A stretch of DNA of 64,000 nucleotides, from assembly GCA_016867415.1 (NCBI GenBank), contig VGJO01000002.1:6835-70834 (forward strand), read 5' to 3'. The notes below the pieces were generated by a model, which worked only from the letters and a program-made list of their open reading frames with translations, did no database searches and had not been told where the DNA came from. Source of the stretch: Candidatus Harrisonbacteria bacterium. GTDB lineage: Bacteria; Patescibacteriota; Minisyncoccia; UBA6257; UBA11618. How positions within the stretch are numbered: position 1 is the first letter of the stretch; each line of letters starts with the position of its first letter. Positions 882 to 54,704 of the stretch are shown here, piece by piece. Position numbers and translations under genes: made by a program.

Positions 882-2993
882 ATGGCCCGAGAATATCCTA
901 TAGAAAGAGTTCGCGATATTGGTATCGTCGCTCACATCGACGCTGGCAAGACTACCGTCTCCGAGCGTATTCTTTTTTATACCGGCGTTTCCCATAAGAT
1001 CGGAGAGGTACATGAGGGCGACACCGTAATGGACTGGATGGAGCAGGAGCGCGAGCGTGGTATCACTATTACCGCCGCCGCCACGACCTGTTTTTGGACC
1101 CCGACCTATGCAAAGGATAATAAGGGTCAGGATTACCGAATTAATCTCATCGACACTCCAGGCCACATCGACTTTACCGTTGAGGTGAAACGCTCCATGC
1201 GTGTCTTAGATGGTGCTTGTGTCGTCTTTGATGGCGTAGCTGGCGTGGAAGCGCAATCCGAGACTAATTGGCGCTATGCCGACGAATACATGGTGCCCCG
1301 CATCTGCTTTATTAATAAGCTCGATCGCACGGGCGCGAGTTTTGATAATAGCTTCAAGTCTATTTTGGATAAATTAAATCCCAACGCCATCCAAATGCAG
1401 ATTCCGATTGGCATGGAAGGAAATTTTGAGGGTCTCATCGATCTTCTGTCTGGTAAAGTCTACCGCTTTGAAGGTGTAAAAGGTGAAAAAATAATCGAAA
1501 GCAGTGATATTCCTGAGGACTACAAAGAACAGTATAAAGAAAAGCGGGGGAAGCTCATTGAACGCATCGTCGAGCATGACGATACCGCTATGGGAAGCTA
1601 TCTTGAAGGCGAGGAAGTCTCTGTTGCGGATCTAAAGCGCATTCTCCGCAAAGCTACTTTAGAAATCAAGCTTATCCCAGTCTTCACCGGCTCCGCTTTA
1701 AAAAATAAAGGTGTCCAGCTCATGCTTGATGGCATCATCGACTATCTTCCTTCTCCTGCCGATGTTCTCCCGGCCAAAGGCACAGATCCGGATTCCGGCG
1801 CCGAGATCACTCGTCTTGCCACTGATGATGAAAAATTCTCCGCGCTTGCTTTCAAAATTGCCGCTGATCCTTTTGTTGGTTCCCTCACCTTTTTTCGAGT
1901 CTATTCGGGCGTCCTTCGTACCGGCAGTTACGTCTTTAATACCAATAAGGGAATCAAGGAGCGCGTTGGCCGCATTCTCCGGATGCACGCCAATCACCGT
2001 GAAGATGTAGAGGAAATCCATGCTGGTGACCTTGGCGCCTTAGTCGGTATGAAAGATACCACAACTGGCGACACCCTAGCCGATCCCGAAAATCCAATCA
2101 TTCTCGAAAAAATTATCTTCCCCGAACCGGTTATCAGTATGCGTATCGAGCCCAAGACCAAAGTCGACCAGGAAAAAATGGGTATTGCCCTCCGTCGTCT
2201 TGCTGAAGAAGATCCAACTTTCCGCGTAGGTGGCGACGCCGAAACCGGGGAAACTATTATCAGTGGCATGGGTGAGCTCCAGCTTGAGATCATCGTCGAC
2301 CGCATGAAGCGCGAGTTTAAGGTAGAGGCCAACGTCGGCCGTCCGCAAGTCGCCTATCGAGAAACCATCCAAGGGAGCGCCGAAGCCGAAGGAAAATACA
2401 TCCGTCAGTCTGGTGGTCGCGGTCAGTATGGTCATTGCTGGCTCAAAGTGGAAGCCAATGAAAAAGGTGCGGGTTTTGAATTCATAGATGCTATCAAGGG
2501 TGGTGTCATTCCCCGTGAGTACATCCCAGCAGTAGAAAAAGGTGTCAAAGAAGCCGTTGAGAGGGGAGTCCTCGCCGGCTACCCGATAGTAGACGTCAAA
2601 GTCACTCTTTTTGATGGCAGTTTCCATGAAGTTGACTCCTCCGAAGCCGCTTTTAAGATCGCTGGTTCTATTGCTTTCCAGGATGGCGTTAAGCAAAGCA
2701 AGCCCGTCCTTCTTGAGCCGATCATGAAAGTACAGGTCATCACCCCAGCCGATTTTATGGGTGATGTCACTGGTGATATTAGCTCCAAGCGCGGCCGAAT
2801 CGAATCCATGGACGACCGCATGGGCGTAAAGGTAATTGAGGCTCTAATTCCTCTCTCTGAAATGTTCGGCTATGCGACTAAACTTCGCTCGATTACTCAA
2901 GGCCGTGGATCCTTCTCGATGGAATTCAGCAACTACGAGCCAATGCCAAACAATGTTGCTCAAGGCATCATCGAAGGCAAAGCCCAAAAGTAA
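882..2993 (+). CDS. fusA: Elongation factor G
   Basis: 703 aa; G-domain motifs [21 protein letters not shown]; EF-G domains IV/V. Confidence 0.95.
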
Positions 2994-3024
2994 ACTGTGC
3001 CTGTCATAGTCTACTGCAATTTAT

Positions 3025-3074
3025 AAAAAACACTGTCGTAAAATATAATAAATATTTTACGACAGTGTTTTTTA
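3025..3074. terminator. Bidirectional intrinsic terminator after fusA
   Basis: Near-perfect 21-bp stem AAAAAACACTGTCGTAAAATA / TATTTTACGACAGTGTTTTTT with 7-nt loop; A-run on one side and T-run on the other. Confidence 0.8.
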
Positions 3075-3135
3075 TCCCCAGTTTGACAAATAAGAAAATT
3101 TAAGTATACTAAATATTGTCAAATAGTGAGTTTTT

Positions 3136-3489
3136 TTGCACCTTAAATTTCCTCTAGAAACAAAAAGGATCCTTCCTATGCATGAACATTTAAACTTCCG
3201 ATCCATCACGACTAAAGAGGTATTTAAAATCCTCTTTGATGTGAACAGCGAGGCCTTCGAAGCCAACTTTTTTGCTTTTATCGGAGAACATTTTTCCGAA
3301 AGGATCAAAGAAGAACTCTTCCGACGCTACGATCATTACCAACGCGGCGGCAGAAATGATATCTTCGACGACAACTTCTGGAATTCGTATCTGAGTGGTC
3401 TCAATCTGATGCCCGAATCAAAAGCTCATCTTGGAGAGGAGCTCGCCGAGCTTTTGACGTCTTTCCGAGCCGCCATCGCTCTTTGCTAA
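3136..3489 (+). CDS. Hypothetical small protein (likely real start MHEHLNF at 3178); inserted between fusA and tuf
   Basis: 117-aa ORF with plausible RBS (aaaggat) before the internal Met; no recognisable family. Confidence 0.4.
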   Translation: MHLKFPLETKRILPMHEHLNFRSITTKEVFKILFDVNSEAFEANFFAFIGEHFSERIKEELFRRYDHYQRGGRNDIFDDNFWNSYLSGLNLMPESKAHLGEELAELLTSFRAAIALC

Positions 3490-7711: not shown

Positions 7712-8551
7712 ATGAAAAAATACAAACCGACAACTAAATCTCTCCGCGGTACTACTGTAGTAGACTACAGCTCTTTTGTGACGACCAAAAAGCCATTTAA
7801 GCGTCTCACTGAGAGAATTAAACAAAGCGCTGGTCGCAATCATCATGGTCGCATCACCATGAGGCACCAAGGCGGTGGCAATAAAAAGACCTATCGGACC
7901 ATTGATTTCAAACAGGATCGTTTTAATATTCCCGCCCGAGTGGAAACTATCGAATATAGCCCCTATCACAGCGCCTTTATTGCTCTTGTAGTTTACAAGG
8001 ATGGTCTCCGCTCTTACATTCTCGCTACCAAAGACGTAAAAGTAGGGGACATTCTCACGACCTCCGAAGATGCTAAGCTCACTCCTGGCAATCGCCTTCC
8101 TTTGAAAAAAATCCCCGTTGGTTATAGCGTAAACAATGTTGAGCTCACTCGCGGTACTGGTGGCAAAATTGCCCGTTCCGCCGGCACCTCCGTCGAAATA
8201 TTGGCACACGACGCCGGCTATACCGACTTAAAGCTTGGTTCCCGGGCAGTCCGTAAAGTCTCCTCCGAAAGCTTGGCGACTATCGGCCAGATATCCAATA
8301 TCGAATGGTCACTAGTAAAGATTGGTAAGGCCGGTCGCAATCGCTGGCTCGGTGTTCGTCCAACCGTCCGTGGTACTGCTATGAATCCAGTTGATCACCC
8401 TTATGGTGGTGGAGAACAGAAACAACCTCGTGGCACTAAACGCCCGAAGGACATTTGGGGTAATATCACTGGTGGCAGAAAGACCCGAAAGCGCAAGAAG
8501 TGGTCTGATCACCTCATTGTTTCACGCCGTATCAATAAAGTAAGAAAATAA
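7712..8551 (+). CDS. rplB: 50S ribosomal protein L2
   Basis: 279 aa; conserved L2 C-terminal [15 protein letters not shown]... motif. Confidence 0.95.
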
Positions 8552-38879: not shown

Positions 38880-38908
38880 TTGACAAATCTTAATTTATTT
38901 GCTATAAT
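38880..38908 (+). promoter_or_regulatory. Perfect consensus sigma70 promoter (TTGACA-17-TATAAT)
   Basis: TTGACA 38880-38885, 17-bp spacer, TATAAT 38903-38908; drives the 38979..39185 small ORF. Confidence 0.75.
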
Positions 38909-38978: not shown

Positions 38979-39185
38979 ATGATTTCGTTTCTGGCCATTG
39001 TTAATGTTGTTTTTTTTCTGGGGTTAATCTCTCAGATCGGTCGAGTGACGACCATGGAAAAATACCTCGACCGCCTCTTCGAGATCTTGGTAAATCTCGA
39101 AAATCGAGCTTCCAAGCTTGAGGACGAAGAAGCCTCCGCTCTCGAATTCGAAGCGACAAACCTCGAAGTCAGCTTCGGTGACTGA
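38979..39185 (+). CDS. Small membrane-anchored acidic protein (68 aa), hypothetical
   Basis: SD-like GAGGAAA 5 nt upstream; TM helix then acidic helical tail; own promoter and terminator. Confidence 0.5.
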   Translation: MISFLAIVNVVFFLGLISQIGRVTTMEKYLDRLFEILVNLENRASKLEDEEASALEFEATNLEVSFGD

Positions 39186-39234
39186 GAGGAAATAACTTAG
39201 ATTACCTCACAGAGCCCCGCTCTCCAGCGAAAGC

Positions 39235-39264
39235 CCCCGAGTAAAAATACTCGGGGATTTTTTT
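39235..39264 (+). terminator. Intrinsic terminator
   Basis: CCCCGAGUA AAAA UACUCGGGG followed by AUUUUUUU. Confidence 0.85.
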
Positions 39265-39417
39265 ACCCAAAATTTCAAACCTACTTTTTCTTCTATAAAA
39301 AGGCCCAAGCGAAGCGTTGGGCTACCAAAGGGGTGAGTCTCTGTTTAAAAAACAGAGAATAGAAATATCGATTGTACTCAATCAATATTTGTATAAAAAG
39401 ATTAAAAATCTTTTATT

Positions 39418-39579
39418 CACCCCTCCCTCTTTTGTGACCTTCTGCAGAAAAGAAGCGCGGCTTTTTTATAGCCTTATTTTTTCTTCTTACTCCCCAAAAA
39501 TAAGGCTATAAAAAATTCTTTTCGAAGCCTGAATGAAAACTCGCAGGAGCTTTCAAGTGTCACAAAAGAGGGAGGGGTG
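39418..39579. repeat. 162-nt long-hairpin inverted-repeat element (21-bp perfect outer IR, 20-bp perfect inner IR, 8-bp middle stem) upstream of dnaX
   Basis: CACCCCTCCCTCTTTTGTGAC (39418-39438) is the exact reverse complement of 39559-39579; TTTTTTATAGCCTTATTTTT (39462-39481) reverse complement at 39496-39515. Confidence 0.8.
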
Positions 39580-39654
39580 GTTTCAACCAGCTAAACAATC
39601 AAGTTAAAAAACGGTTTTCCTAATCCCTCCTAATATAGTATCCTTTCCTCACTT

Positions 39655-40746
39655 ATGTCCGCCCTCTACCGCAAATACCGTCCGCAAAAATTCTCCGACC
39701 TCCTCGGCCAGTCTGATCTTGTGACTGTAATGATAAACACGACTAAATTAGACCGCTTCGCTCACGCCTATATCTTCTATGGCACCCGTGGCACAGGCAA
39801 GACCTCCGTCGCCCGCCTCGTGGCCAAAACCGCCAATTGCACCGACCTCGAGTATAAGAAAAAGCACGGCGAAGCCTGTGATGCCTGTGATGCCTGCATG
39901 AAAATCAATCAAGGTGTCACCCTCGACATCTTCGAGATCGATGGCGCGAGCAACCGCGGCATCGATGAGATCCGCGAACTAAAGGAAAAAATCCGCGTCT
40001 CCCCTGCCTTCCTCCGCTACAAGATCTTCATTATTGATGAAGCCCACATGCTCACGACCCCCGCCTGGAACGCCCTCCTCAAAGTCTTTGAAGAGCCGCC
40101 CGCCCACGCGATCTTCATCCTCGCCACTACTGAGTTTGAAAAAATCCCCAAGACCATCCTCTCCCGCGCCCAACGCTACTTCTTCAAGCCACAAGGTATC
40201 AAAGAAATCTCCGAAAAGCTCCTTACAATCACAAAAGAAGAAAAAATCAACGCCGATAAAGACGCCTTGGAGCTCATCGCCACTTTTGCCGATGGCAGCT
40301 TCCGCGACGCCGAGTCTCTCCTCGATCAGCTCCGCTCCCTTGCCCCCACCCTTACCAAAGATGTGATCGAGGAAGCCCTCGGCCGCCTCGGCCCTGCAAG
40401 CATCCGCGAGCTCGCCCTCGCTATCTGTAAAAACGATCTGAAAAATTCCCTCGCTCTCGTCAAGAAATATGCCAGGGATGGCGTGAACTTCCCCGATCTC
40501 ATCCGCGAGCTTATTGAGCTTCTCCGCCTCGCTCTCACCCTCCATCTCGCCCCCGCACTCGAAAGCGATCTTATCGTCGATTTTGGTGAGACGGAAAGCG
40601 CAATTATCAAAGAATTAGCCACTCTCTGCCTTCCCGAAAAAATTTCTCCACTTCTAAAAGGTCTCATCGCGGCCTACGAAGAAAGTGGTACCACCCCTTT
40701 TCCCCAGCTTTCCCTTGAACTCGCCCTCATCGAAAACATAAAATAA
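39655..40746 (+). CDS. dnaX: DNA polymerase III subunit gamma/tau, short (363 aa, domains I-III only)
   Basis: Walker A GTRGTGKTS, zinc module CDACDAC, DEAH box IIDEAHML, SRAQ sensor. Confidence 0.9.
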   Translation: MSALYRKYRPQKFSDLLGQSDLVTVMINTTKLDRFAHAYIFYGTRGTGKTSVARLVAKTANCTDLEYKKKHGEACDACDACMKINQGVTLDIFEIDGASNRGIDEIRELKEKIRVSPAFLRYKIFIIDEAHMLTTPAWNALLKVFEEPPAHAIFILATTEFEKIPKTILSRAQRYFFKPQGIKEISEKLLTITKEEKINADKDALELIATFADGSFRDAESLLDQLRSLAPTLTKDVIEEALGRLGPASIRELALAICKNDLKNSLALVKKYARDGVNFPDLIRELIELLRLALTLHLAPALESDLIVDFGETESAIIKELATLCLPEKISPLLKGLIAAYEESGTTPFPQLSLELALIENIK

Positions 40747-43791: not shown

Positions 43792-44093
43792 AGACAATCC
43801 GTTGCTGCTATTTTAATCAGTACTGAAGGTGAAATTATTCTCCAAGAACGGGATAATAAGCCTGGCATCGCCCAACCCGGTAAAGTCAACAACTTGGGGG
43901 TGGTATGGAAGCTGGCGAAGAACCACTCTACTCAATCGTCCGAGAAATAAAAGAAGAATTAAGCATTCAGCTCCCGAAAGACCGTTTCACCTTCCTTGGA
44001 TCCTATATCATGAAAAGCTCTCTCGATAAAAAAGGGAAAAGTCAACAAAAAACCCGTTACTCGAAAAAAGTAACGGGTTTATTTTTTATCTGA
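43792..44093 (+). pseudogene. NUDIX hydrolase interrupted by a frameshift in a G5 run (about 43880-43888); the C-terminal reading frame runs through the terminator hairpin
   Basis: N-terminal frame MRQSVAAILISTEGEIILQERDNKPGIAQPGKVNNL then +1 frame GGGMEAGEEPLYSIVREIKEELSI (NUDIX box GGG-x5-E-x7-REVKEE-like). Confidence 0.5.
44050..44087. terminator. Bidirectional intrinsic terminator
   Basis: AACCCGUUACU CGAAAAAA AGUAACGGGUU followed by UAUUUUUU; A-run upstream. Confidence 0.8.
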
Positions 44094-44102
44094 AAGGAAA
44101 AA

Positions 44103-44879
44103 TCACGAAGTCTTCCCATCATTTCGCCCGGAGACCTTGTTGCTCAGACCTCCCAAAATATCAGAAAGTCGAGCAATGTAAGGCATCATAGGACAAAAAA
44201 TTTCTTTCGAATCCAGATGTTCATCCGGGGTTGCTATTATGTCTCGAATAACATTAATAATCCGAGACATCATTTCTTTGTATACCTCAAAATCAACCCG
44301 ATTTATTTCTCCAAAGCATGAGGGTAATTCTGACATCTCGTATGCAAAGAAAGAGTCAATCGCCTGCGAACCAACTAAAAACATCGGTCGGGGATTTTTC
44401 GAATCAAATTGGATGAGATCAAGAGGTGAGTAAGAGACCTCCGGATCTCTGGCGCCAGACATGATGACTCCTGATTGGGTTTCAAGCACCAATCTTCTTT
44501 CATGAGAAATGAGATAAAGCGGTGGAAGAGCCAAGAAAGAAAAGTGAATCTTTTGAAGCCTTTCCCTCATCCTTCTCCGCAAGGTGATGATTGGCAGAAA
44601 CGGCAGTTCCATGCTCCTCTTATGGCCCATTTCCTCAATGTGAGAAAGAAAGAGAAAATCCTCAAATGTTGGCGCCTTATCTGCCACTTTAGCGCAGTGA
44701 AGATAGGGTGCCAACATCCTTTTCTCAAAGCAGCCGCTCCCTCCCATATAGGAAGAGATATCCACATTCGGAATATGAAGCATTCCCCACCATTCATTCT
44801 GCTCTTCTCGAAGAACTTTCTGTTTTCTGCAAAAACTAGCAAATGCATGAGCTTCCGCCGTAAAAGTCGTCGGTTTCAT
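44103..44879 (-). CDS. Hypothetical protein
   Basis: 258-aa ORF, no recognisable motifs. Confidence 0.4.
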   Translation of the reverse strand: MKPTTFTAEAHAFASFCRKQKVLREEQNEWWGMLHIPNVDISSYMGGSGCFEKRMLAPYLHCAKVADKAPTFEDFLFLSHIEEMGHKRSMELPFLPIITLRRRMRERLQKIHFSFLALPPLYLISHERRLVLETQSGVIMSGARDPEVSYSPLDLIQFDSKNPRPMFLVGSQAIDSFFAYEMSELPSCFGEINRVDFEVYKEMMSRIINVIRDIIATPDEHLDSKEIFCPMMPYIARLSDILGGLSNKVSGRNDGKTS

Positions 44880-45085
44880 GAGAATCTCCTATGGGAAAGG
44901 TTAAAGAACATCAATAAACTCACAGGCACATAAAAAATAATATAAAAGCAGATTTTTGTAAAGTGAATGAAAAAATTAACTAATCGGCGGCCGTCGATTG
45001 GATAAGTAAAAAGAAAAAGAGAGGGAAAGAGGATCAAACTGTCATAGCTAACACTAAAATATATTTACAAAATATATATCTTTCA

Positions 45086-45472
45086 AAAGGGAAGCCGATA
45101 AGCCGGATTCTGTCATAATCTAATAAAAGATTATGGGATGGCAATTTGTCTATGCGGCACTCCCAGCATCACTTTTTATTCCTCATGAGGAATAAAAAGT
45201 GATGCTGGGCACGGCCTTGCACTCAGGTAAGGGTTTAGCCGTTTCATCAGAGAAATATGAGACTTCTTTCTCTGCTGGAGGCAAGATCTCTCCTCCGCGA
45301 TTTCTTTTCAAAAACCACCGTCTCTGTTCGCACCTCGAGCTTAGGAGGTTGCCCTCCCTATACCGACAGGCTTACACCTGCTACCCATTACTACAAAGAT
45401 TACTCCTCATAGTGAGTGTCCGGACTTTCCTCAGCAAAGCTTACGCTCTGCCGTAACCATCAAGCTTCCCAA
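45086..45472 (-). ncRNA. rnpB: RNase P RNA (bacterial type A), about 385 nt
   Basis: Minus-strand sequence contains the conserved P4 5' strand GAGGAAAGUCCGGAC, the GUGCGAACAGAGACGG region (cf. E. coli GUGCAACAGAGAG) and the P4 3' strand ACAGAAUCCGGCUUAUCGG; P1 formed by GGGAAGCU/GGCUUCCC at the ends; contains a 23-bp perfect helix (45160-45210). Confidence 0.85.
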
Positions 45473-47165: not shown

Positions 47166-47441
47166 CTATCTTCCTAAAAATCTTTTCTCCAATATCTCTA
47201 TTCTATCTTTTAAAGCTTCATACTCATGCCGATAAATAATATTCTGAAGATTTTTACGAATAGCAATAATTTCCATTTCTAAAGAATCCACTTTTATTTC
47301 GAGAGAATCAATTTTTTTCTCTAATTTTTCTTCCATATTATCCATTCTTTCATTCTCATTAAAAAAACCCTCCTGTGTCATCTGCGCGAGAGTATGCATT
47401 ATCTCTCCCAAGCCTCCTAAAGTCATTTTTTCCGAAGCCAT
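47166..47441 (-). CDS. Small coiled-coil protein, hypothetical
   Basis: 91-aa ORF, heptad-rich. Confidence 0.4.
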   Translation of the reverse strand: MASEKMTLGGLGEIMHTLAQMTQEGFFNENERMDNMEEKLEKKIDSLEIKVDSLEMEIIAIRKNLQNIIYRHEYEALKDRIEILEKRFLGR

Positions 47442-47479
47442 ATTCTACACAATATACACCAAATCCATATAAAAAAGAA

Positions 47480-47804
47480 AAAACCCCCACGCTGTTAGCA
47501 TGGGGGAATCTGATTGACCACTCTTGCTCTTCAAATTGAGGGGAATGAAAGAACCGAAGAGCGAGAGAGTGTTAGGTTTTGTTCAAGATCGCTTGAACAG
47601 TGGCTTATACTTCCGAAAAGTGGAAGGAGAGACCGCCACACCTGTCATTTAAGAAAGATCTCAGTCATGTCTTCTAGTCTTTAAAAACATAACCGGCGTC
47701 CCAAATTCTCTTGCGAGAGGGGCACGACTTTCGATACCTGCTATTTCAAAAGATTAAAGAGTGGAGTTTTAATATTTCTCTCTTATATACTCTTCACCTT
47801 TTCT
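47480..47804 (-). ncRNA. Candidate novel structured ncRNA (about 320 nt), class unknown; own consensus promoter and intrinsic terminator
   Basis: Minus-strand TTGACA (47839-47834) / 17-bp spacer / TATAAT (47816-47811); no ORF >=60 aa; terminator CCCCCAUGCUAACAGCGUGGGGG + U-run at 47516-47480; internal 12-bp stem CUCUUGCUCUUC/GAAGAGCGAGAG and GUUCAAG-AUCG-CUUGAAC hairpin. Confidence 0.5.
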
Positions 47805-47810
47805 AATATA

Positions 47811-47839
47811 ATTATAGCAAACCATAATAAACTTGTCAA
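47811..47839 (-). promoter_or_regulatory. Perfect consensus sigma70 promoter (minus strand TTGACA-17-TATAAT) for the candidate ncRNA
   Basis: Reverse complement of 47811-47839 = TTGACAAGTTTATTATGGTTTGCTATAAT. Confidence 0.7.
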
Positions 47840-47861
47840 TACAAATCTGCTAAAATCACCA

Positions 47862-47895
47862 AAAAAGCCCTTAAAATTGGCTTTTTTGGTAGTTT
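47862..47895. terminator. Bidirectional terminator downstream of rpmA
   Basis: AAAAAAGCC CUUAAAAUU GGCUUUUUU. Confidence 0.6.
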
Positions 47896-47912
47896 TTATA
47901 TCGATTTTTTAA

Positions 47913-48185
47913 TTATAAAACCGACACTTCCTTAAGATTCCGGGTCCGGCCATCAAACCTGGTCTTTTTTCTATCCTTAAAAGACACTACCCCCGCCTTT
48001 CCGGCATAAAGTGTGTCATCTCCACCCCTTTTTACACCAATTCCCTCTATGTAATGACTTCCTCGCTGCCGAAGGATGATCTGGCCGGGTTCTACTACCT
48101 GTCCATGATTAATTTTGACTCCAAGGCGCTTAGCTCGTGAATCTCTGCCATTTTTAGTACTACCGCCCGATTTAGTTTGTGCCAT
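47913..48185 (-). CDS. rpmA: 50S ribosomal protein L27 (no adjacent rplU)
   Basis: MAQTKSGGSTKNGRDSRAKRLGVK typical L27 start. Confidence 0.93.
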   Translation of the reverse strand: MAQTKSGGSTKNGRDSRAKRLGVKINHGQVVEPGQIILRQRGSHYIEGIGVKRGGDDTLYAGKAGVVSFKDRKKTRFDGRTRNLKEVSVL

Positions 48186-48405
48186 ACCTCTTATATATAC
48201 GCCTTACTTTTTCGATTAATTTCTACTTTTTTCTTGAGCGGAATCCTCATTTACTCAGCTCTGGTATGCTGCAGCTCCTGCTCAGAAAAAAAGTAGAAAT
48301 TTCCTCGAAAAATTCTATGCTTAGTTGATTGCTTAGTCCCAAAATTACCTCATTAAAGTAATCTGAGCTTGTTTTTATTGTAGGTTTTATTATATTACAG
48401 AAGAT

Positions 48406-48549
48406 ATGGAAATGTCAAAGGGTCAGATAATAGTTTTCTTTTTGTTTTTCATTCTCGCCTTTATTGGTGGATTTTTTCTCGGCGCTCGTTATGAAGGTAA
48501 AAAAGACCGCGCCCCCATCATTATTGAAAAAGCCACAATAAATCAATAA
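48406..48549 (+). CDS. Possible small membrane protein (47 aa)
   Basis: ATG ORF MEMSKGQIIVFFLFFILAFIGGFFLGARYEGKKDRAPIIIEKATINQ immediately upstream of pgk; single TM helix. Confidence 0.3.
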   Translation: MEMSKGQIIVFFLFFILAFIGGFFLGARYEGKKDRAPIIIEKATINQ

Positions 48550-48558
48550 TATAAATAC

Positions 48559-49524
48559 ATGAAATTATTAAGCGACCTTTCCCAAGAAAGTCTCTTGGGA
48601 AAGAGAGTGCTTACGAGAATTAATCTCGATATCAAGCAAGCCGGCGACGCCTACCGCCTAGAAGCCGCCCTCCCGACTCTCCGCTATATTCTAGAAGCCG
48701 GCGGAAAGCCCGTCCTCCTCTCCCACCGCGGCCGCCCTCTAAAGAAAGACAAAAAATTATCCCTAGAGCCATTCATTGGCGAGCTTCAGACTAAACTTGG
48801 TGAATCTATAGATTGGCTAGAAAACCTTCGCTTTGACGAACGAGAGATGACGGGTGACTTAGAATACGCCGAGAGTCTTGCCAGTCGCGGCGACCTTTAT
48901 GTAAATGATGATTTTGCCACCAGTCATCGTGCCCATGCTTCGATCGTCGGCATCACCAATTTTCTTCCCTCCTATGCTGGTCTCCATCTTGCCGAAGAAG
49001 TTCGCATCCTCTCCGAAGCCCGCGACAATCCCAAGACTCCCCTCGTAGTCATCCTCGGTGGTATTAAAGTTGAGGACAAAGTCGGTGTCATCGAACATCT
49101 CCTCCCTAAAGCCAAAGCCATCCTTATGGGCAGCGCCTATCATAAAGCCGATCATCCCGCTCTTCTCCATGATTCGGTCCTTCTTCCTCTCGATGAAGTA
49201 AGAAACAATGATGGTGAATCCCGAGACATTGGCAAAAAAACTATCGCCCTCTATAAAAAAGCGCTTGAAGGTGCTGCAACCATTATCTGGGCCGGACCGC
49301 TAGGCGAAGTAGAGAAAAAAAAATTTGCCACAGGCTCCCGTGAAATCATGGCCGCCATCGTGGAAAGCGACGCCTTCAGTATTGTTGGTGGCGGCGACAC
49401 CACCGCCTTCCTAATGAAAGAAAATACCTTAAAAAAATTCAGCTTCGTCTCCACAGGCGGCGGTGCCATGCTCGCCTTCATGGCCGGCGCCGAGCTCCCC
49501 GGCCTCAAAGCTCTCCAAAAATAA
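48559..49524 (+). CDS. pgk: Phosphoglycerate kinase, compact (321 aa)
   Basis: LSHRGRP, NDDFATSHRAHAS, STGGGA motifs of PGK. Confidence 0.85.
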   Translation: MKLLSDLSQESLLGKRVLTRINLDIKQAGDAYRLEAALPTLRYILEAGGKPVLLSHRGRPLKKDKKLSLEPFIGELQTKLGESIDWLENLRFDEREMTGDLEYAESLASRGDLYVNDDFATSHRAHASIVGITNFLPSYAGLHLAEEVRILSEARDNPKTPLVVILGGIKVEDKVGVIEHLLPKAKAILMGSAYHKADHPALLHDSVLLPLDEVRNNDGESRDIGKKTIALYKKALEGAATIIWAGPLGEVEKKKFATGSREIMAAIVESDAFSIVGGGDTTAFLMKENTLKKFSFVSTGGGAMLAFMAGAELPGLKALQK

Positions 49525-52809: not shown

Positions 52810-53230
52810 TCTTACAAAAATTTCAGAGAAAGACCGCAGAGCTCTAGCCTATGAGATGCGCCGCATAATGAAGGCTCACGATGGCGTCGGCCTCTCGGCC
52901 AACCAACTCGGCCTCTCACACCGCTTCTTCATCGCCGAAAACAATCGCAAATTCTACGCCATCTGGAATCCAGAGATTTCCAAAATCTCTAATAAAAGCG
53001 CTACTGAAGAAGAAGGTTGCCTCTCGATTCCTGGCGTCTTTGGCCAAGTCTCCCGTTCCATCGCCGTCACTCTTACTGGCCTCGATCTCCGTGGTAAAAA
53101 AGTCTCTCACAAAGCAACTGGTTTCTTAGCCCGCATCTTCCAGCATGAGCTCGACCATCTTGATGGTATTCTCTTCACCGACAAAGCCACTAATATCCGC
53201 GAAGAATCCCTGCCCGTTTCTATACAATAA
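52742..53230 (+). CDS. def: Peptide deformylase
   Basis: GVGLSANQLG, EGCLSIPG, HELDHL motifs. Confidence 0.92.
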   Translation: MTIITVHNKKQEQILRTKTDPSDLTKISEKDRRALAYEMRRIMKAHDGVGLSANQLGLSHRFFIAENNRKFYAIWNPEISKISNKSATEEEGCLSIPGVFGQVSRSIAVTLTGLDLRGKKVSHKATGFLARIFQHELDHLDGILFTDKATNIREESLPVSIQ

Positions 53231-53260
53231 AAAATCACTACAATGTAGTGATTTTTTATT
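53229..53260. terminator. Bidirectional intrinsic terminator between def and the DEAD-box helicase gene
   Basis: AAAAAAUCACUA CAAUG UAGUGAUUUUUU. Confidence 0.85.
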
Positions 53261-53270
53261 GTATAGATTC

Positions 53271-54704
53271 TTAGCGTCGGCCATCATAGCCTCCACTCCG
53301 AAAAGGTTTTCTTCCTGTCTGCCTAGGACCTCTCCTATATCCCGATCGAGAATTACCTCCCCTAAGCGAAGTAAATCCTCCTTCCCTTCGAGAACTAGAT
53401 CCATAATCTCGCGATCCGAATCCTGCGCTCGTACGTCGAGAAAAACCTCCTCTTTCAGCCCCATCTCTCGATCGAAAAGGCCGAGAAGAAAATCCACTGG
53501 TTCTTCGGGGTGAAAACGGTCTTCGAGAATTCGACTCACTGTAGCCTCGGGCGTAGGTGGATCTCTCATGCGATTCCTGAGCCGCCGCCGGTGGCAAGCC
53601 ACTCGCCCGAGATACCTTCACTGCTTTTTTGATCAATCGCTCAATCATCCGAATCTCCCGCTCCTCTTTTGGTAGAGCAAATGAGATAGCCTTTCCCTCC
53701 GCGCCCGCTCGCGCCGTCCGGCCGATGCGATGCACATAGTCCTCGGTCTTGCTTGGCAAATCATAATTTACGACAAGCGATATCCCTTTCACGTCAATTC
53801 CTCGCGCAGCAATATCAGTTGCCACAAGACAGCGATATTCACCCGACTGAAATCCAGAAAGCGCTCTCTTCCGCTGATTAAGCGATCGATTTGAATGAAT
53901 CTCCTCCGCCGTATACCCAGCCCGTTTCAAAGCTACAGTAATATGCTTCGCTCCATGTTTTGTCTTAGAAAAGACTAAAGTCATTCCCTGCGTTTCCTGC
54001 AAAATTTTAAGGAGCAAAGGAATTTTATCTTCCTTCCGCGCAATGAAAAATTCCTGCTCGATCTTATCTACTGTCTTTCCTGGTGGTGACACCTCGATCC
54101 GAAGCGGTGTCTTCATAAACGTCCGGGCGATATCCATCACCGAATCCTCTAGAGTTGCCGAAAAAAGCATCGTCTGCCGTTCCTTGGGCAAGACCTGCAA
54201 GATCTTCCGGATCTGAGGCTCAAAACCCATATCGAGCATCCGATCAGCTTCATCAAGCGCCAAAACACCGACATGAGAGAGGCTCACCGTCCGTTGCTGT
54301 AAGTGATCGATCAGCCGCCCTGGCGTCGCAATGATAATCTGGGGATTACTGCGAAGCGCTCTCACTTGCGGCCCCATTGGCATTCCTCCGATCAAAACTG
54401 CGGTTTTTAGCCCTAAACCTCGACCTACTTTGAGAAGCTCTCGTTCCACCTGTAGCGCCAGTTCCCGTGTCGGTAAAAGTACTAGACCCATCACCCCTTT
54501 CGTCTGCATGAGCGATTGGATCATTGGAATACCAAAAGCCAAGGTCTTTCCCGTCCCCGTCTCCGCGATTCCAATAAGATCCTTGCCTTCTAAAGCAATC
54601 GAGATTGACTTACCCTGGATCGGGGTTGGTGTCTCATAACCAATATTTTTTAATATATTCAAAATCCCCGGGGCAATCCCGAGGTCAGTAAATTGCGTCT
54701 GCAT
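53271..54704 (-). CDS. DEAD-box ATP-dependent RNA helicase with C-terminal Arg/Ser/Gly-rich tail
   Basis: Q-motif, Walker A AETGTGKT, DEAD, SAT, HRIGRTAR motifs. Confidence 0.92.
   Translation of the reverse strand: MQTQFTDLGIAPGILNILKNIGYETPTPIQGKSISIALEGKDLIGIAETGTGKTLAFGIPMIQSLMQTKGVMGLVLLPTRELALQVERELLKVGRGLGLKTAVLIGGMPMGPQVRALRSNPQIIIATPGRLIDHLQQRTVSLSHVGVLALDEADRMLDMGFEPQIRKILQVLPKERQTMLFSATLEDSVMDIARTFMKTPLRIEVSPPGKTVDKIEQEFFIARKEDKIPLLLKILQETQGMTLVFSKTKHGAKHITVALKRAGYTAEEIHSNRSLNQRKRALSGFQSGEYRCLVATDIAARGIDVKGISLVVNYDLPSKTEDYVHRIGRTARAGAEGKAISFALPKEEREIRMIERLIKKAVKVSRASGLPPAAAQESHERSTYARGYSESNSRRPFSPRRTSGFSSRPFRSRDGAERGGFSRRTSAGFGSRDYGSSSRREGGFTSLRGGNSRSGYRRGPRQTGRKPFRSGGYDGRR

Follow-up and report, generated by a model that had tools for sequence, protein, structure and literature searches.

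Does the ORF-free interval on the minus strand between rpmA and the gene for a 91-aa protein constitute an RNA gene of its own, and if so, is the RNA of a known kind? The interval lies in the 64-kb stretch of Candidatus Harrisonbacteria DNA that we analysed as a whole (the window), and a first-pass annotation had proposed it as a unit running from promoter to terminator and encoding a novel non-coding RNA. Judging from its sequence signals, the unit probably does make a non-coding RNA. Much of the earlier proposal has stood, as the unit appears non-coding, is insulated, matches no known family and has a promoter that is probably strong; as a functional novel RNA it is a candidate. The features of the unit and of its surroundings are collected in Table 1.

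Table 1. Positions in the window of the predicted signals, RNA hairpins (H) and neighbouring genes discussed in the text.
Feature	Position	Strand	Details
Sigma-70 promoter	47839-47811	minus	score 12/12 plus TG extension
-35 element TTGACA	47839-47834	minus	followed by a 17-nt spacer ending in TGC
-10 element TATAAT	47816-47811	minus	extended form TGC-TATAAT, 47819-47811
Predicted transcription start (A)	47804	minus	7 nt past the -10 element, from whose position it is inferred
H1	47755..47796	minus	8-bp stem UGAAGAGU/ACUCUUUA, A/U-rich apical part; mean pair probability 0.86
H2	47728..47752	minus	7-bp stem CUUUUGA/UCGAAAG; mean pair probability 0.76
H3	47696..47725	minus	interrupted stem, cap UCUC-GCAA-GAGA (GNRA tetraloop); apical stem pair probability 0.90
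H4	47662..47695	minus	13-bp stem CGGUUAUGUUUUU/GAAGACAUGACUG, loop AAAGACUA; pair probability 0.98
H6	47600..47639	minus	outer stem GUGGC/GCCAC, inner stem CUUCC/GGAAG; pair probabilities 0.99 and 0.94
H7	47580..47599	minus	perfect 8-bp hairpin UGUUCAAG-CGAU-CUUGAACA; pair probability 0.97
H8	47519..47571	minus	longest helix, 6 + 9 bp; pair probabilities 0.94 and 0.95
Intrinsic terminator of the unit	47471-47506	minus	10-bp stem with 7 G-C pairs, 3-nt loop; pair probability 0.98
rpmA intrinsic terminator	47858..47890	minus	ACCAAAAAAGCC ... GGGCUUUUUUGGU; read from the sequence, with weak terminator-type cmscan alignments
91-aa coiled-coil protein gene	47166..47441	minus	conserved unannotated family, NVIYRHEFE motif
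DHH/DHHA1 phosphoesterase gene	47158-46286		after the 91-aa gene
RNase HI gene	46018-45617		after the DHH/DHHA1 gene
RNase P RNA, class A	45083-45472	minus	64 bits against a gathering score of 100; E = 3.6e-17

The sigma-70 promoter had been called a textbook one, and our scoring fully agrees. Perfect sites of the form TTGACA-N16-18-TATAAT occur three times in the 64-kb window, against 0.01 expected from shuffled sequences; the remaining two lie at 38880 (plus strand) ahead of a small-protein gene and at 48418 (minus strand) ahead of rpmA. Perfect promoters had earlier been assigned to the small-protein gene, correctly, and to tuf, whose promoter scores only 11/12; the third perfect site is that of rpmA. 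At the other end of the unit, the intrinsic terminator is the best of the neighbourhood. Its stem CCCCCAUGCU/AGCGUGGGGG occupies 47506-47497 / 47493-47484 and has directly 3' of it a U6CU6 tract, UUUUUUCUUUUUU, at 47483-47471; the first-pass annotation had recognised this strong hairpin and placed it about 10 nt too high. Promoter and terminator stand some 320-330 nt apart, and the RNA would measure about 325-330 nt if it started at the predicted A. Upstream, we found the hairpin of the rpmA terminator, which shields the unit from transcription coming from that side, as had been claimed. We also looked for an antiterminator, and the 5' arm of the unit's own terminator has just one alternative pairing in the nascent RNA. 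Because this sole rival pairing is weak (5 + 4 bp), termination looks constitutive.

The interval holds no ORF of at least 60 aa on either strand, in keeping with the earlier description; the longest is 43 aa on the minus strand and 56 aa on the plus strand. Genetic codes 4 and 25, in which UGA is read as sense, opened no frame in the unit, and its six-frame translations matched no Pfam family. A tblastn search of the gap with relatives' proteins encoded next to rpmA, pgk and the small gene gave no coding or pseudogene remnant. With a promoter of its own, an intrinsic terminator of its own and no evident ORF, the unit has the sequence signals of an independent sRNA gene.

We then asked whether the RNA belongs to a known family. 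At gathering score, Rfam 15 reported only three tRNAs over the whole window and nothing at the unit; over the whole window at E <= 1 there was again nothing at the unit, and with lax filters and E <= 10 the region 47300-48000 returned only terminator-type chance matches, far below gathering scores. The first-pass annotation had suggested such a cmscan comparison and had itself argued against tmRNA, SRP RNA and RNase P RNA. No known family was matched even at E <= 10, ARAGORN was negative as well, and these three exclusions hold. A tmRNA combines a reading frame for the tag with ends that resemble the acceptor and T arms of a tRNA; ARAGORN detected none in the window, and the 3' end of the unit is a plain terminator hairpin, with no tRNA-like ends. 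SRP RNA is marked by the conserved helix 8 (domain IV) motif, and neither the small nor the large SRP models matched at E <= 10. RNase P RNA is defined by the P4 helix and the conserved regions CR-I to CR-V, and has one gene per genome. The unit is similar in length to a class A RNase P RNA and contains the short string GAAAGUC, but it lacks the complementary strand that would form P4 and has no cmscan match; the genuine gene lies elsewhere in the window, as had been noted (Table 1).

In 6S RNA, usually about 185 nt long, the 5' half pairs with the 3' half to give an extended rod that is opened by a large bubble at its centre. Like 6S RNA, the product of the unit would be an abundant ncRNA transcribed from a consensus promoter, and the two differ less than twofold in size. 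Unlike it, the unit is 330 nt long, matches no 6S model at E <= 10 and, in both the minimum free energy (MFE) and the centroid structure, folds into local hairpins rather than a rod with a central bubble; the only pairing between its two ends is that of the A-rich 5' end with the U-tail. Prompted by a published report (PMC13011429), we also considered a tRNA gene interrupted by a group I intron, and found neither tRNA halves nor an intron match. No riboswitch, T-box or other leader family was detected at E <= 10. In the Patescibacteria ncRNA literature, we found nothing relevant to the unit.

The predicted fold is that of a string of about eight local hairpins, with most pair probabilities at or above 0.9 (Table 1). 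Its MFE of -102 to -104 kcal/mol corresponds to z = -4.6 against dinucleotide shuffles. In a separate shuffle test, the transcribed strand reached z = -4.0 from the start to the terminator and -2.6 for the body without the terminator, whereas the complementary strand reached only -2.0 for the whole unit and -0.7 for the body, so that the folding excess is specific to the transcribed sense. The folding of the unit is unusual but not extreme: the body shows a moderate excess, and some other loci of the window fold far better. By composition-corrected folding energy, the unit ranks 22nd among 1554 windows and about seventh among the distinct loci of the 64-kb window, where the RNase P RNA and a stretch at 39.2-39.7 kb outrank it. 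Low composition-corrected energies, with z of about -3 to -3.6, were also seen at 53055-53546 (minus strand), 43953-44362 (minus strand) and 2871-3280, the first of which falls within coding sequence.

Among the exposed segments, the 19-nt C/U-rich loop of H8, UUCUUUCAUUCCCCUCAAU (47553-47535), is the most accessible of the whole RNA, with an unpaired probability of 0.96. The C-rich motif GCCCCUCUC is carried by H3, while H6 exposes GGUCUCUC and ACUUUUC with unpaired probabilities of 0.93 and 0.99. The stable helices announced by the first-pass annotation are therefore present, except that the 12-bp stem it quoted had been read from plus-strand letters; on the RNA strand this helix contains one C-A mismatch and has 6 + 9 pairs.

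How widely is the locus conserved? The flanking proteins are 100% identical to those of a Candidatus Harrisonbacteria MAG (locus tags FJY91_), whereas identity falls to 72% for the next-best L27 and to 45% for the next-best DHH protein, which makes the lineage an isolated one in the collections searched. Twelve contigs of the same population, coming from several samples, diverge by 0.1-0.2% over 4.6 kb and carry an identical transcript; the only SNP of the locus among the strain variants, 47807 A>G, falls between the -10 element and the predicted start. The absence of SNPs from the 330 nt says nothing on selection, because only about 0.9 would be expected at a population divergence of 0.2-0.3%.

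Outside this population, we did not find the RNA in any of the places searched. Neither nhmmer nor blastn gave a match among 71 rpmA loci (GTDB species) and 16 further loci, and R1, a covariance model of the 3' domain, matched only itself when run over 542 kb of relatives' DNA. Synteny walks from rpmA, the DHH gene and the 91-aa gene in relatives met the RNA at none of these places. The unit has no paralogue within the 64-kb window, and searches of viral, phage and plasmid sequences with it gave no match. A metagenome scan with three C-rich anchors returned one match, a chance one in a CT-rich stretch; as a negative result it is weak, because the source species was not returned though the pattern matches the window.

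In relatives, the genes on the two sides of the unit have other neighbours. There pgk runs into the DHH gene, by overlap or with one short ORF between, followed by the RNase HI gene and later by rnpB, and rpmA is followed after 22-70 nt by the convergent rplI-ctpB. In the closest relative, a gene for an SMC-like ATPase is followed after 42 nt by the homologue of the 91-aa gene, and this in turn by rpsP-khpA. The equivalent junctions of relatives are 22-70 nt long or overlapping, against about 370 nt from promoter to terminator here. Because the flanking genes sit in other tight contexts in relatives, without the RNA, the locus appears to be lineage-specific and to lie at a rearrangement junction.

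The region next to the unit has further peculiarities. The gene order of 47913-49524 is rearranged with respect to the nearest relatives, and pgk (48559-49524, plus strand), which in them stands ahead of the DHH operon, here has the opposite orientation to that operon. It is also short, with 321 aa against 366-378 aa in relatives, and has both ends intact. The rpmA gene (48185-47913) is monocistronic, without rplU beside it, and its perfect promoter (48418-48389) leaves a leader of about 200 nt.

Downstream of the unit, the 91-aa ORF is, to judge from its homologues, a real gene. An exhaustive HMMER search at E <= 0.001 placed it in a family of 39 small coiled-coil proteins of about 90 aa, whose aligned members share MT.E.LA.M..GF at the N-terminus and NVIYRHEFE..LKDR at the C-terminus; no relatives of the protein were found in viral contigs. 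The 43 nt that separate its start codon from the U-tract contain no recognisable promoter-like site.

A terminator (45541-45518) and then a promoter of its own (45506-45478) precede the RNase P RNA gene further along. With a score below the gathering score, the gene would escape standard annotation. The copies of three relatives (L081, 88.6 bits; L079, 34.4 bits; L090, 100 bits) are at or below this threshold as well. Judging from the E-value of the gene, RNAs of this lineage that have diverged nevertheless receive strong E-values. In L090, three tandem ORFs of about 65-76 aa (7900-8550, minus strand) with paired cysteine motifs of zinc-ribbon-like type fill most of an apparent 850-nt gap beside rnpB.

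Our preferred reading, which we hold tentatively and at slightly less than an even chance, is that the unit is an independent one and gives rise to an abundant, structured and lineage-specific RNA of about 325-330 nt, while read-through feeds the downstream operon. The RNA would start near 47804, end in the U-tract and act in trans. Its contact surface may be the C/U-rich loop of H8 together with two further C-rich segments, and its partner either a protein or a purine-rich RNA. Polymerases that escape termination would transcribe the genes for the small coiled-coil protein, the DHH phosphoesterase and RNase HI; we infer this supply because the operon lacks a promoter of its own and its counterparts in relatives are transcribed from upstream genes. 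A stand-alone RNA is favoured because a streamlined genome keeps some 370 nt where its relatives keep 0-70 nt, and because there is no credible antiterminator and no match to an aptamer or leader family. A more ambitious version sees in the unit a highly expressed, structured RNA gene of some 330 nt, unique to one Harrisonbacteria lineage and of a new class, that arose or was acquired recently, lies at a rearrangement junction and also drives an RNA-metabolism operon; taken as a whole, we consider this version rather unlikely.

We also considered a more specific role, that of an sRNA of RNAIII or RsaE-like type directing C-rich loops at Shine-Dalgarno sequences. The loops are exposed, but the test of complementarity to start regions was negative. 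Over the 79 start regions of the window, loop complementarity was not enriched and duplex energies were weaker than those with coding interiors. A Shine-Dalgarno-like 4-mer lies upstream in 14 of the 79 crude start calls, and the test is a rough one, with uncurated start codons and about 6% of the genome covered (genome size estimated).

The main competitor of the stand-alone RNA is a long attenuating 5' leader that also donates its promoter to the operon of the small-protein, DHH and RNase HI genes, the short RNA being a by-product. In this scenario, the rearrangement cost the operon its ancestral promoter, and attenuation would be constitutive or responsive to a factor. This role stays in consideration because the unit ends 43 nt before a real gene on the same strand that has no recognisable promoter. 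It is also in keeping with the operon-internal position of the DHH and 91-aa counterparts in relatives, behind pgk and behind the SMC-like gene respectively, and with the RNase P RNA, which has its own promoter and hence needs none from here. We nonetheless regard it as unlikely on balance: the terminator is strong and faces no convincing competing antiterminator, the Rfam search yielded no riboswitch, T-box or leader family, and nothing of the kind precedes the orthologous genes of relatives. Promoter donation alone, moreover, needs no structured spacer of 330 nt in a streamlined genome. That the interval is instead non-functional DNA left at the junction, with fortuitous or relic signals and an incidental fold, seems improbable to us. 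Its lineage-specific position exactly at a junction missing in relatives would suit this idea, as would the strain SNPs, which give no sign of selection, the folding excess of only z = -2.6 in the body and the presence of further gaps of 450-860 nt in the window. Against this, a 12/12 promoter with TG extension is expected only 0.01 times per window, this one is correctly oriented and spaced to the best terminator of the neighbourhood, the folding excess is specific to the transcribed strand, and no pseudogene remnant is detectable.

Two further readings concern the nature of the product, and we hold both to be very improbable. The RNA might be a highly diverged housekeeping RNA (6S, SRP, tmRNA or similar) that lies beyond the reach of the Rfam models. 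A perfect promoter is typical of such RNAs, and RNase P RNA, here and in relatives, falls well short of the gathering score of 100 bits (64, 88.6 and 34.4 bits), which points to a reduced sensitivity of the models. However, the diverged RNase P RNA still reaches E = 3.6e-17, whereas 6S, SRP and tmRNA gave nothing at E <= 10 with lax filters. ARAGORN and the missing tRNA-like ends argue the same way, and the 5' and 3' parts of the RNA are both purine-rich and do not form a 6S rod with a central bubble. A housekeeping RNA should also be detectable in relatives, where R1 finds nothing in the limited DNA searched. Least probable of all is that the transcript serves as an mRNA and encodes at least one very small protein. 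The transcribed strand does contain short ORFs, one of 21 aa (ATG, 47648), one of 36 aa (GTG, 47641) and ATG ORFs of 7-9 aa, but they have neither a Shine-Dalgarno-like sequence nor a recognisable domain and lie mostly within stable helices, and, as the 91-aa neighbour shows, homologues can be detected for the real small genes here.

Returning to the stand-alone RNA, which known systems does it resemble? In Staphylococcus, regulatory sRNAs such as RNAIII and those of the RsaE/RoxS type stand alone, fold into several hairpins and expose C-rich loops. The unit is like them in its strong promoter, its intrinsic terminator, its several independent hairpins and its exposed pyrimidine- or C-rich segments UUCAUUCCCCUCAAU (an apical loop), GCCCCUCUC and AUUCCCCCAU. 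It is unlike them in that it has no sequence or Rfam relationship to them and no embedded ORF such as hld, its complementarity to ribosome-binding regions is not enriched, and it is conserved in one population only. We know of no RNA chaperones or trans-acting sRNAs in the phylum of the unit. With 5' leaders that contain a terminator, the unit shares the succession of a promoter, a long structured RNA, a terminator and then a same-strand operon without a promoter, and some leaders of this kind are also released as trans-acting RNAs. In contrast to the leaders of the riboswitch, T-box and attenuator types, it has no aptamer match and no convincing terminator/antiterminator switch, and it is missing before the orthologues of relatives. 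The unit is best filed as an orphan, independent bacterial RNA gene of small or medium size, and on its sequence signals the reading as a novel ncRNA is plausible.

Bacteria of the Candidate Phyla Radiation have tiny genomes. To our knowledge, almost nothing has been described of their ncRNAs beyond the universal ones, and essentially no regulatory RNAs. A strongly expressed, lineage-specific RNA, if true, would indicate that reduced genomes still invent RNA genes. At present, the unit is of value as a well-delimited orphan candidate from a single population, and not as a discovery.

The most structured locus of the window lies elsewhere, at 39186-39660 (plus strand). This ORF-free stretch of 475 nt is located behind the 68-aa small-protein gene (38980-39185), whose perfect promoter spans 38880-38908. 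Its MFE is -157.5 kcal/mol (z = -10.8; it ranks first on both strands), and it had no Rfam match. It contains nested long inverted repeats, among them a 21-bp pair, CACCCCTCCCTCTTTTGTGAC / GTCACAAAAGAGGGAGGGGTG, that encloses an A/T-rich hairpin of 20 bp; an ncRNA, a palindromic mobile element and a signal at the DNA level are all conceivable.
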